Below are positions 1 to 4,851 of a stretch of DNA of 4,851 nucleotides, piece after piece. A model generated the notes under the pieces. The model had not been told where the DNA came from and made no database searches. It worked only from the letters and a program-made list of their open reading frames with translations. The translations under genes were made by a program, and so were the position numbers. Source of the stretch: a virus (taxonomy: Duplodnaviria > Heunggongvirae > Uroviricota > Caudoviricetes); the IMG/VR virus record IMGVR_UViG_2740892230_000008; one strand, given 5' to 3'. How positions within the stretch are numbered: the first letter of the stretch is position 1; each line of letters begins with the position of its first letter.

Positions 1-331
1 TTTCCGCGTTACCCGCAGCGTTAACGGTGATGGTATGTCCATGTGAGCCAATCGCAACGGAGTGCGTATGAGCACCAATACCGACAGTATGTGCGTGTGC
101 ACCTGCAGATGCGGCTGTGCCGCTGACACTATGAGTGTGCGCTCCTGCAGCACTTGTATTCACACTGGCCGCAGACACTACCTTATGTACTGACCCATTT
201 TGTGACCACTGGCTGACTGCTGATGCGCCTGTGACACTATGAGTATGGTTTCCAGCACTTGCGGCTGTACCGCTCACACTGTGCGTATGCGCCCCGATGT
301 TATTCGTGGATTTAGTGCCGTAATCAAACGA
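1..331 (-). CDS. stf: side tail fibre protein fragment, C-terminal His-box region (partial; no stop in window, bounded by N run)
   Basis: Seen: reverse-strand translation from 331 down to 1 is open for 110 codons: [110 protein letters not shown]. Repeated GAHTHS boxes; last 60 nt are an inverted copy of 4792-4851 with 2 mismatches. Absent from the ORF track because it has no stop inside the window. Established: His-box C-termini are typical of lambda Stf / T4 gp37-like fibres. Frame differs from fragment 342-766. Confidence 0.8.
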
Positions 332-341
332 NNNNNNNNNN
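332..341. other. run of 10 N (probable scaffold gap of unknown true length)
   Basis: Seen: 10 N. The coding frame changes across it, and the downstream fragment restarts at a position homologous to 296-626. Confidence 0.7.
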
Positions 342-766
<425 letters not shown>

Positions 767-776
767 NNNNNNNNNN
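767..776. other. run of 10 N (probable scaffold gap)
   Basis: Seen: 10 N flanked by a 14-bp direct repeat, acgcatatcaggga, at 753-766 and 778-791. The coding frame shifts by 1 across it. Confidence 0.75.
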
Positions 777-1928
777 TACGCATATCAGGGATCAGGCCTG
801 ACGGATAAGCGGCTGCAAGTTTCGGGTATGCAGATTTGTCAAAAGTCTGCCCCTGCATCAGGGCATAACCAGACGGAACGGTATCCGATGGCCACGGGAT
901 TGGTGCACCGACTGGATAAAACTCTGCAGGAGGATGAGCCGAGGTGTAAAGCTGCGCCCACGGCGACCAGTTTGCGTCGGTCATATCCCGTCGTGAACGA
1001 ATAAATGCCGGAGCATGAGCACCGCTTGTACCACTCCAGCCGATGAGTAACTCACCTTCGCCAACGGCTGTCATCCCTTTCAGGTGAATGATATTTCCAT
1101 ACGCTGTTGGATATCCGTTGTTATACACCTCGTATAACTCAAGACCTGCTGCCCCCTGCGTATTGTCTGTCAGCGCGGTTACCCGACCTTTTGAAGCCAG
1201 ATTAACTGATGATACTGCTGTTCCACCTGACGGTAACGCCCCGATCTCTGATGCCGTTGGCTTATTTCTGGAGTTATAGTCCCTTCGCCAGCCAGGTGAA
1301 TAATCTGTTCCGTGATTAATATAGGTAAACTGGGCGTTGGTTGTTCCGCCACCGCTGGATGTGGTCGGAGTGGTAATGCGGATCGTCATCGCTGACTTTA
1401 TCCCCATTACTTCAATGACAGCTCCGGCGAGATGAATATTACCGCAGTCAGTATCAGTAATGATTTTATTATTGCCATAAGACCAGGACCCCTTGCACAT
1501 CCAGTAGGGATGGTTAAATGCTCCCTGAGAATCCAGCCACTCGATAAACTGTGCAGTCGTCCAGTTTCCTGTTGTTGTGCTTACTGACCCACCGAAGGCA
1601 CGGCAGGCACCAATATTTTTCGTAAAGGTGTCTTTGCCAGGGATATCCGCACCGTTCTGATCTTTCTGCAGACGTTTCTCAGCATTGTCATTGGCTGCTT
1701 TTACTGCCTTTGGCGTTGCCGCCAGCGTTTCAGACGTGCTGTTGGTCGCGCTGCTTAGCTGGATTATCCCTTTCTGTGCTGTCGTTGCATCCTGTGCGGT
1801 GTATTTCCCGTTAGCCAGGTCATACGCGGCCTTAACGGCTTTTGGCGTTGCCGCCTGTGACTCGGAAGTGCTGTTGGTCGCACTACTGAGCTGGACTATC
1901 CCCTTTTTCGTCGTGCTCGCATCCTCAA
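777..1928 (-). CDS. stf: side tail fibre protein fragment (tail-fibre repeats, central module, conserved C-proximal linker; partial)
   Basis: Seen: same frame as ORF-track 760..3012 (-). Protein starts [82 protein letters not shown], then a central module (...[27 protein letters not shown]...), and ends ...[47 protein letters not shown]. Last ~130 nt (777-905) are an inverted copy of plus 4206-4330 with ~4 mismatches. The track's stop at 760-762 lies beyond the N run and is not meaningful. Confidence 0.8.
1681..1908 (-). repeat. two tandem in-protein tail-fibre repeat units ([16 protein letters not shown][11 protein letters not shown])
   Basis: Seen: unit 1 at 1825-1908 ([28 protein letters not shown]) and unit 2 at 1681-1776 ([32 protein letters not shown]), separated by a 16-residue spacer. 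Established: this is the short phage tail-fibre repeat found in Stf-like proteins. Confidence 0.7.
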
Positions 1929-1938
1929 NNNNNNNNNN
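1929..1938. other. run of 10 N (probable scaffold gap)
   Basis: Seen: 10 N. The protein on either side is not contiguous: ...GWFKLA on one side, restart at [11 protein letters not shown] on the other. Confidence 0.7.
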
Positions 1939-2175
1939 TGCCAGTTTGAACCACCCTGCCCCGCCAGAGAAAGAGATCGTTACTGAATTTAAAGTGCCAA
2001 TATCTTTCGGTGTTAATGTTATATCCGCAGTCAGTGCTTTCCCGTTAACTTTTCGGTTAGATGGTACCCTGCCATTCGCATTGTCATTCGCTGCTTTAAC
2101 TGCCTTCGGTGTCGCGGCAAGCGTTTCAGATGTGCTGTTGGTCGCACTGCTGAGCTGTACTATCCCCTTTTTCGT
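1939..2175 (-). CDS. stf: side tail fibre protein fragment (79 codons, bounded by N runs on both sides)
   Basis: Seen: [79 protein letters not shown]. Inverted near-copy of plus 3021-3254 (B-type allele). In frame with neighbouring minus fragments in window coordinates, but it is an alternative continuation, not a contiguous one. Confidence 0.75.
2077..2175 (-). repeat. tail-fibre repeat unit ([33 protein letters not shown])
   Basis: Seen: the same motif as at 1681-1908 and 3021-3116. Its first 56 nt also recur at 2186-2241 across the N run. Confidence 0.65.
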
Positions 2176-2185
2176 NNNNNNNNNN
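2176..2185. other. run of 10 N (probable scaffold gap)
   Basis: Seen: 10 N flanked by a ~56-bp imperfect direct repeat, 2120-2175 versus 2186-2241, whose last 33 nt are identical. Confidence 0.75.
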
Positions 2186-2579
2186 AGTGACTCGGAAGTG
2201 CTGTCGATCGCACTGCTGAGCTGTACTATCCCCTTTTTCGTCGTACTTGCATCCTCAAGCGCCACGGCGGATGCAATATCCTCTGCCCGTTTTGCCGCTG
2301 TCTCGGCGCGCGTTGCCGCGGTTTCTGCCGTACTTTTGCTCTGTGCTGCCGCTGTCGCACTGCCAGCAGCCTCTGTCGCCTTCGTGGATGCTGTCGTGGC
2401 GCTGCCCTTCGCTGCTGACGCCTGTCTGGTCGCCTCATCTTTTGAAGCTGACGCCGATGATGCCGATGACGCCGCCGAACTGGCGGACGATGCGGCAGCC
2501 GTTTTTGAGGATTCTGCGCTGGTTTCCGACGCTTTCGCGTTCGTCTCGGATGTCTTCGCTGCGGAAGCAGACCTCGCTG
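2186..2579 (-). CDS. stf: side tail fibre protein fragment, Ala/Ser/Thr/Lys/Glu-rich N-proximal shaft segment (partial; N-terminus missing)
   Basis: Seen: [130 protein letters not shown]. Inverted near-copy (only a few mismatches per 60 nt) of plus 2682-3075. The part of ORF-track 760..3012 lying above 2589 is antisense to the plus-strand gene and is not part of this CDS. Confidence 0.75.
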
Positions 2580-2589
2580 NNNNNNNNNN
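2580..2589. other. run of 10 N at the head-to-head junction of two 5'-truncated tail-fibre gene fragments
   Basis: Seen: 10 N. Coding sequence runs leftward on the minus strand from 2579 and rightward on the plus strand from 2590, and the flanks are inverted homologues. Confidence 0.75.
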
Positions 2590-3588
2590 CCGCCGCCGGA
2601 AAATCGGCAGAAAGTGCTGCATCGTCCGCTTCAACAGCCACAACGAAGGCTGGCGAAGCCACTGAACAGGCCAGTGCAGCAGCGAGGTCTGCTTCCGCAG
2701 CGAAGACATCCGAAACGAATGCGAAAGCGTCGGAAACCCGTGCAGAATCCTCAAAAACGGCAGCCGCATCGTCCGCCAGTTCGGCAGCGTCATCGGCATC
2801 ATCTGCGTCTGCTTCAAAAGATGAGGCGACCAGACAGGCGTCAGCAGCGAAGGGCAGCGCCACGACAGCATCCACGAAAGCAACAGAGGCGGCAGGCAGT
2901 GCGACGGCAGCATCTCAGAGCAAAACTGCTGCTGAATCCGCTGCGACCCGTGCGGAAGCTGCTGCTGATCGTGCTGAAGAGATTGCCGGTGCAGTTGCGA
3001 TGGAAGACGCAAGCCTTACAACTAAAGGTGTTGTGAAACTTAGCAGTGCTGTTGATAGCACCAGTGAATCGCTGGCCGCAACGCCAAAAGCAGTTAAAGC
3101 AGCCAATGACAATGCGAATAGCAGGGTGCCATCTAACCGAAAAGTTAACGGAAAAGCACTGACTGCGGATATAACATTAACGCCGAAAGATATTGGTACT
3201 TTAAATTCAGTAACGATGTCTTTCTCTGGCGGGGCTGGGTGGTTCAAACTGGCTACGGTTACCATGCCACAAGCGAGTTCCATCGTTTACATCGCATTGA
3301 TTGGTGGCGCTGGTTACAACGTCGGTTCCCCACATCAGGCAGGCATTTCAGAACTGGTTCTACGAGCAGGCAATGGAAACCCCAAAGGAATTACCGGGGC
3401 TTTGTGGAAGCGTACAGCCGTCGGATTAACGAATTTCGCCTGGATCAACACATCCGGCGATACATATGATATTTACGTTGAGATTGGCAATTATGCGACT
3501 CGTGTAAATATCCATTGGGATTGTACTGCAAATGCGACAGTTTCTATTTATACATCGCCAACATATTCAGCGAGTAAGCCTTCCAGCG
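2590..3588 (+). CDS. stf: side tail fibre protein, N-truncated fragment (Ala/Ser-rich segment, tail-fibre repeat, first part of central module)
   Basis: Seen: frame with codons starting at 2592 is open throughout: ...SASAAKTSETNAKASETRAESSKT...[118 protein letters not shown]...[29 protein letters not shown]. Absent from the ORF track because this frame has no stop before the window end. Begins directly at an N run with no start codon context. Confidence 0.8.
3021..3116 (+). repeat. tail-fibre repeat unit ([32 protein letters not shown])
   Basis: Seen: plus-strand copy of the same motif, more diverged at its 5' end than the minus-strand copies. Confidence 0.65.
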
Positions 3589-3598
3589 NNNNNNNNNN
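3589..3598. other. run of 10 N (probable scaffold gap) inside the plus-strand tail-fibre gene
   Basis: Seen: 10 N flanked by an ~85-89-bp imperfect direct repeat, 3500-3588 versus 3599-3687, with about 3 internal mismatches. Confidence 0.75.
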
Positions 3599-4851
3599 GA
3601 GTGTAAATATCCATTGGGATTGTACTACAAATGCGTCAGTTTCTATTTATACCTCGCCAACATATTCAGCGAGTAAGCCTTCCAGCGTTACCGATGGTGT
3701 TGTTTATACGATGTATAGCTCACATCAGAAACCTACACCATCAGATATTGGAGCGCTGCCAACGACTGGAGGGACTATTTCAGGTCCGTTGTCTGTTACT
3801 GATGGGATCACCGGGGCACTGAAGGGGAACGCCGATACCGCGACGAAACTTGCGGCAGCCCCAAAAATTAACGGTGTTAAGTTTGATGGCTCGGCGGATA
3901 TTAACCTCACGTCGGAAAATATTGGTGCATTTGCCCGACGTTCGACGGGGGCTTATGCGGATTCGGATGGAGCCGTTCCCTGGAATGCCGAATCAGGCGC
4001 TTACAATGTCACCCGCTCTGGCGACAGCTATATTCTGGTTAACTTCTATACCGGAGTCGGAAGTTGCCGGACCCTGCAGATGAAGGCGCATTACAGAAAT
4101 CGTGGTCTGTTCTACCGTTCTTCAAGAGACGGTTATGGTTTTGAGGAAGACTGGGCAGAAGTTTATACCTCGAAAAATCTTCCACCAGAAAGCTACCCAG
4201 TTGGCGCACCAATCCCGTGGCCATCAGATACCGTTCCGTCTGGTTATGCCCTGATGCAGGGGCAGACTTTTAACAAATCTGCCTACCCGAAACTTGCAGC
4301 CGCTTATCCGTCAGGCGTGATCCCTGATATGCGTGGCTGGACGATTAAGGGCAAACCTGCCAGTGGTCGGGCCGTATTGTCTCAGGAACAGGACGGCATT
4401 AAATCGCATACCCACAGCGCCAGCGCATCCAGTACGGATTTGGGGACGAAAACCACATCGTCGTTTGATTACGGCACTAAATCCACGAATAACACCGGGG
4501 CGCATACGCACAGTCTGAGTGGCTCTACGGGGTCTGCCGGTGTTCATACTCATGGTAATGGTATTCGTTGGCCAGGAGGCGGCGGTTCTGCGTTAGCATT
4601 TTATGATGGCGGTGGGTTCACTTATGTCCAGAATTCACAGTATCAAGTAAGCCCGGGGACTTCTTCCTATAGATCGTATTATCAACGTATTCAGACACAG
4701 TCAGCAGGTGCTCATACCCACTCGCTGTCTGGTACTGCAGCAAGTTCTGGCGCACATGCACATACTGTAGGTATTGGTGCGCATACGCACTCCGTTGCGA
4801 TTGGTTCACATGGACACACCATCACCGTTAACGCTGCGGGTAACGCGGAAA
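3599..4851 (+). CDS. stf: side tail fibre protein fragment (central module remainder, tail-collar-like segment, His-box C-terminal region; 3' partial)
   Basis: Seen: same frame continues after the N run: [111 protein letters not shown]...[79 protein letters not shown]...[48 protein letters not shown]. No stop before 4851. Established: this domain order matches lambda Stf-type fibres. Confidence 0.85.

Follow-up and report, generated by a model that had tools for sequence, protein, structure and literature searches.

The head-to-head arrangement of truncated tail-fibre genes in the centre of the window (the whole 4851-nt stretch of DNA that was analysed) is not a real genomic feature. Almost certainly, it is a scaffolding artefact of a short-read de Bruijn-graph assembly, in which two chains of contigs were set antiparallel to each other. 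A mis-join was the reading preferred in the original prediction, and it is supported by the lack of continuity at 2580-2589, terminal overlaps of 34 nt, a strand conflict between pieces of one gene, the normal 5' continuations of the arms and the absence of the arrangement elsewhere. The mis-join had been attributed to two stf paralogs; the sequences are indeed paralogous stf genes, but the arms are chains of fragments from at least four paralogs.

Composition of the window

The window consists of seven short pieces (331, 425, 1152, 237, 394, 999 and 1253 nt, in order) separated by six runs of exactly ten N (Table 1), of which only the central one had been noted before. A repeat search revealed eight inverted-repeat pairs, which form a pseudo-palindrome across the entire window; this, too, had gone unnoted.

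Table 1. Pieces, gaps and repeated ends of the window. L001 is the C-type reference gene; L002 and L003 are paralogs A and B of E. coli 55989; L005 and L004 are paralogs A and B of NCCP15648 (L004 at 2.315 Mb); rc, reverse complement.
Feature	Position	Strand	Description
Piece 1	1-331	-	additional stf paralog (type D), His-rich repeats of the C-terminal region
10-N gap	332-341		flanks overlap in gene coordinates, ~81% alike (252-331 vs 547-626)
Piece 2	342-766	-	paralog A, gene nt 2510-2934; 100% over 425 nt to L002 and L005
10-N gap	767-776		actually a 14-nt overlap, 753-766 = 778-791
Piece 3	777-1928	-	paralog A, gene nt 1373-2523; 99.1% to L002/L005
10-N gap	1929-1938		precedes the intruding piece 4
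Piece 4	1939-2175	-	intruder, paralog B, gene nt 1390-1626; 100% over 237 nt to L003 and L004
10-N gap	2176-2185		flanks share a 34-nt exact word, with mismatches before that word
Piece 5 (left arm)	2186-2579	-	Ala/Ser-rich shaft, A-like paralog, gene nt 1052-1444; 98.2% to L002/L005
10-N gap	2580-2589		false head-to-head junction
Piece 6 (right arm)	2590-3588	+	C-type paralog, gene nt 962-1960; shaft and Phage_fiber_2 repeat (PF03406)
10-N gap	3589-3598		actually an 87-89-nt overlap with 3 mismatches; flanks from different paralogs
Piece 7	3599-4851	+	paralog B, gene nt 1872-3124; 99.92% (1 mismatch in 1253) to L003
Shared stem of fork	2590-2713	+	2590-2679 is the apparent spacer
34-nt pair	1-34		= rc 4818-4851
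34-nt pair	298-331		= rc 4461-4494
34-nt pair	733-766		= rc 4321-4354
34-nt pair	2142-2175		= 2208-2241
34-nt pair	2546-2579		= rc 2680-2713
34-nt pair	3555-3588		= 3654-3687

Four of the same-strand junctions are negative gaps, that is, their flanks overlap in gene coordinates. At the second N run, for instance, the adjoining pieces map to positions 5459-5883 and 4322-5472 of L002, and piece 5 overlaps piece 3 by 72 nt with six mismatches. Single-nucleotide differences occur in three of these overlaps, with 3 mismatches over 87 nt, 6 over 72 nt and about 19% over 80 nt, and the fourth is a 14-nt exact match. The differences within same-strand overlaps indicate that even neighbours inside one arm come from different copies.

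Central junction and its two arms

Coding of tail-fibre proteins had been proposed to run leftward from 2579 on the minus strand and rightward from 2590 on the plus strand. Both directions were confirmed by translation in the frames fixed by the reference genes: the left arm, read from 2577 to 2186 (-), gives ARSASAAKTSETNAKASETSAESSKT... and then 17 protein letters, and the right arm, read from 2592 to 3588 (+), gives AAGKSAESAASS...ARSASAAKTSETNAKASETRAESSKT... The peptides ASETSAESSKT and ASETRAESSKT, quoted earlier as an example of the likeness between the arms, are both present in these translations. It also proved correct that both arms begin mid-gene. Their inner ends correspond to nt 1052 of a 3075-nt gene on the left and nt 962 of a 3171-nt gene on the right, so the junction has no start codon, RBS or promoter. 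No determined sequence exists across 2580-2589, which is a gap marker only.

The region 2186-2579 does have an inverted near-copy. Its partner is 2680-3073, and the earlier coordinates 2682-3075 are 2 nt off, a register in which identity is just 22%. In the proper register the two segments are 81.7% identical over 394 nt and 88.5% identical over 130 amino acid residues. The repeat search returned the pair as 2198-2579 and 2680-3061 (382 nt, 83%), which is far above chance.

A palindromic chimera of the foldback (amplification) type, one of the forms suggested for the mis-join, was considered and rejected as unlikely. Such a chimera needs the same sequence in inverted orientation, and the arms, about 82% alike, map to different paralogs.

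Reference stf genes and origin of the pieces

Both arms matched thousands of E. coli records, always within genes for a "prophage tail fiber N-terminal domain-containing protein". The five reference loci are intact genes of 3075-3171 nt situated in gpJ-lom-stf-tfa modules of lambdoid prophages; every one of the five annotated contexts shows lom and gpJ ahead of stf on its strand. Flanking genes are missing from the window, and this context is seen in the references only. The distance between paralogs A and B is 590 kb in the genome of strain 55989 and 1.46 Mb in NCCP15648, where they occupy opposite strands. Each arm aligns colinearly with an internal stretch of an intact stf gene of 3.1-3.2 kb, and in closed genomes each is preceded by the normal 5' part of such a gene.

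Identity to the interiors of lambdoid Stf genes is 98-100% for all seven pieces. The pieces differ from such genes in that none has the prophage tail fibre N-terminal domain (PF08400), the last 47 nt or tfa, because these parts are common to the paralogs and were assembled elsewhere. According to the Pfam search, PF08400 occupies residues 1-134 in both reference proteins; it was found in none of the pieces, and the first 961-1051 nt of the genes are missing from the window. The pieces are consequently gene fragments and not whole members of the Stf family. The domains carried by the window translations are PF03406 (Phage_fiber_2), PF07484 (Collar) and PF03335 (His-rich Phage_fiber). Two copies of PF03406 and the Collar domain were detected in piece 3, and gp37_C-like, Collar and His-rich Phage_fiber repeats in piece 7, which ends 47 nt short of the stop codon.

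Comparison with the reference genes shows that the pieces derive from at least four stf paralogs of lambdoid E. coli prophages. Piece 1 is 99.1% identical over its full length to a tail-protein gene in NZ_CP027544.1, but only 94% identical (122 nt) to paralog A and 88-89% to paralogs B and C. Piece 4, which matches paralog B perfectly, is only 85% identical to paralog A over 92 nt. For the right arm, identity is 98.7% with L001, 99.6% with intact stf genes of numerous genomes and only 90% with paralog B of strain 55989.

The segments 342-766, 1939-2175 and 3599-4851 are 99.9-100% identical to prophage genes of the E. coli 55989 / O104:H4 lineage. Since these pieces are of the 55989 type and piece 6 is much closer to genes of unrelated strains than to paralog B of that lineage, the source would be a mixed sample or else a related strain that carries an additional prophage.

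Two further observations concern the right arm. The divergence of the C-type piece from paralogs A and B is concentrated in a block of about 200 nt (window 2890-3090, gene nt ~1262-1460), where 29-41 of every 50 positions are identical, and the flanks of the block are 94-100% identical to B; judged from these alignments, this is apparently the kind of mosaic that recombination among stf genes typically produces. Besides, the region 2590-3075 is 98.6-99.0% identical to tail-fibre genes on non-mobilizable E. coli plasmids of 100-120 kb, e.g. NC_011917.1 (LF82). Phage records of about 108 kb (Cyrano, CMS-2020a) match it in the same identity range, and chromosomal lambdoid prophages do so as well. 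This distribution suggests that the stf module may be exchanged between prophages and phage-plasmids.

Terminal overlaps of constant length

At seven piece ends, exactly 34 nt are repeated elsewhere in the window, and the sequences part beyond that point. Six of these are right ends, each of a different piece; the only left end among them is that of the first piece. In the two overlaps that were compared base by base, a mismatch immediately precedes the 34-nt run. An overlap of constant length, equal to k-1, points to contigs of a de Bruijn graph broken at branch points, with k = 35.

Between the two paralogs of strain 55989 there are 12 shared exact runs of 35 nt or more. Both ends of the scaffold lie exactly 34 nt into the last of the shared runs, an 81-nt exact run at the 3' ends of the paralogs. 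The breaks fall where the paralogs become identical. It was also observed that each chain ends 47 nt short of the stf stop codon, inside the exact run that the paralogs share into tfa.

Direct repeats of 72-107 nt, spaced at multiples of 66 nt (132, 264 and 66), occupy window positions 1687-2258 and encode the Phage_fiber_2 unit of 26 protein letters. The repeat array adds to the tangle of the graph, and the foreign piece 1939-2175 is inserted within it.

The inverted ends of the window could also recall an invertible tail-fibre segment of the Mu G, P1 C or e14 P type, captured in mixed orientations. Invertases of the Din family classically act on tail-fibre genes, and the window shares with the segments they invert both the opposed tail-fibre coding and the inverted terminal repeats. 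Nevertheless, the polarity is wrong: real segments hold convergent alternative 3' parts with the 5' ends of the genes at the borders, whereas the genes of the window point outward from its centre. The inverted ends arise because the two chains break off in one shared 3' repeat. In addition, the window shows no continuity across the junction, and neither a match to gix with up to three mismatches nor a match to the AAACCNNGGTTT core with up to one mismatch was found. No invertase gene is present in the window or annotated within 3-4.5 kb of the reference genes in the five contexts. An invertible segment is extremely improbable.

Fork topology and strand conflict

The branch word at the inner end of the left arm (2546-2579, minus strand) is identical to 2680-2713 when read parallel to the right arm. 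In paralog A, the sequence directly upstream of the left arm (L002 3911-4000) is identical to window positions 2590-2679, in the same direction, at 85 of 90 positions, and the last 52 nt match exactly. A parallel 34-mer combined with a parallel upstream near-copy indicates that the true local topology is a fork that has been flattened into a false palindrome. The stem of the fork is 2590-2713, and its two continuations are the sequence from 2714 onwards and the reverse complement of 2545 to 2186.

The strands of the pieces are in conflict as well. Piece 4, on the minus strand, and piece 7, on the plus strand, match a single gene of E. coli 55989 (paralog B) at 100% and 99.92%, respectively, and lie on the two sides of the central gap. 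Pieces 2, 3 and 5 belong to another gene, located 0.59-1.46 Mb from B. An intact gene cannot have its pieces on opposite strands, which means that one of the chains is mis-oriented.

These data bear on the view that the junction is a genuine breakpoint of inverted duplication or illegitimate recombination in the shaft region, where two stf paralogs have been fused 5'-to-5', leaving two dead 5'-truncated genes that were linked correctly and not closed. The scaffolder did place the chains next to each other, so some linking signal may have existed, and the arms, being paralogs with 82% nucleotide identity and not identical copies, are not a simple foldback. At the same time, the proposed breakpoint coincides with an N run without sequence, and the parallel overlap of the inner 34 nt of the left arm with 2680-2713 implies that reads continue into the ordinary upstream part of the gene. 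The presence of pieces of a single gene on both strands also contradicts a breakpoint, as does the failure to find the arrangement in any of the closed genomes, phages and plasmids searched. When inverted paralogs undergo homologous recombination, the products are colinear hybrid genes and not a head-to-head fusion. A genuine breakpoint is highly improbable.

Search for the arrangement in other sequences

The region 2186-3075 was used as a query against 5,426 complete E. coli genomes. An arm was matched in 3,717 of them, and in none was at least 80% of the query covered at one place, a threshold that requires both arms to be colinear on one strand. The arrangement was likewise absent from all 23 matching phage records and all 214 matching plasmids. 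The two flanks separated by a gap of 0-30 nt had no match in viral, genome or metagenome contigs, a pattern search that may miss records with literal N. The N-free 65-mer 2186-2250 had no match in the genome or metagenome contig collections.

The closed-genome comparison joins only arms within about 945 nt of each other, and pairs of divergent genes set wider apart are outside its reach. Ten Ns, moreover, can be a placeholder and not a measured distance. It might be supposed, then, that the central gap is larger than written and hides the 5' parts and the intergenic region of two complete, divergently oriented stf neighbours. The organisation of the tail module speaks against this. As lom and gpJ precede stf on the same strand in each of the five contexts, the partner gene would lie beyond a whole tail module, past the reach of a short-insert scaffolder. 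The remaining junctions, being negative gaps between paralogous pieces, show the links of the scaffold to be unreliable, and a larger gap leaves the strand conflict of pieces 4 and 7 as it is. Two complete divergent neighbours are very improbable.

Proposed origin of the scaffold

The scaffolding artefact most likely arose as follows. The assembly was most likely run at k = 35, and seven unitigs would have been joined by minimal 10-N gap markers. The sample, either a mixture or a single E. coli genome that harbours several lambdoid prophages, would hold at least four paralogous stf genes, with exact stretches longer than k in common and differences elsewhere. Every paralog-specific stretch would then become a short contig of its own, ending 34 nt into the next shared stretch, and the scaffolder would chain these contigs by ambiguous links, mixing the paralogs. 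The chain 1-2579 would have been set antiparallel to the chain 2590-4851, and the 5'-truncated, promoter-less, head-to-head genes would be the point where both chains abut.

The assembler was presumably Velvet-like, with only the first piece keeping its left k-1 prefix and gaps shorter than 10 bp written as ten N; no support for this Velvet rule on short gaps was found in the literature. In its short pieces, minimal N gaps and constant k-1 end overlap, the window resembles other de Bruijn-graph scaffolds of tangled repeats, and it is also like them in that the pieces map to different loci of closed genomes and the breaks fall at exact repeats common to the paralogs. Nothing essential sets it apart from such scaffolds, except that here the sides of a paralog "bubble" are joined at their ends in opposite orientation and so imitate a palindrome.

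One point counts against the artefact account. Forward-reverse read pairs mis-assigned between paralogs give rise to parallel joins and not to antiparallel ones, and no inverted exact repeat of at least 14 nt, able to flip a walk through the graph, was found in the reference genes. Neither mechanism, then, accounts for the orientation flip.

Implications for annotation

An open reading frame of 750 amino acids on the minus strand (760..3012) crosses four N runs and fuses three paralogs. Further open reading frames at 1685-2665 (+), 2435-2875 (-) and 2614-3036 (+) pass through N runs or represent alternative or antisense frames of the GC-rich Ala/Ser shaft. All four are by-products of the scaffold and of codon composition, and a gene caller could report them.

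The relevance of the finding is one of quality control only. A gene caller applied to such a scaffold would emit chimeric products, such as the 750-aa frame, and calls of this kind would inflate the apparent diversity of tail fibres or suggest exotic inverted architectures. A test for terminal overlaps of constant length, 34 nt in the present case, is a quick way to spot such scaffolds without reads. The case of the window calls for caution in the annotation of tail-fibre genes in draft assemblies.
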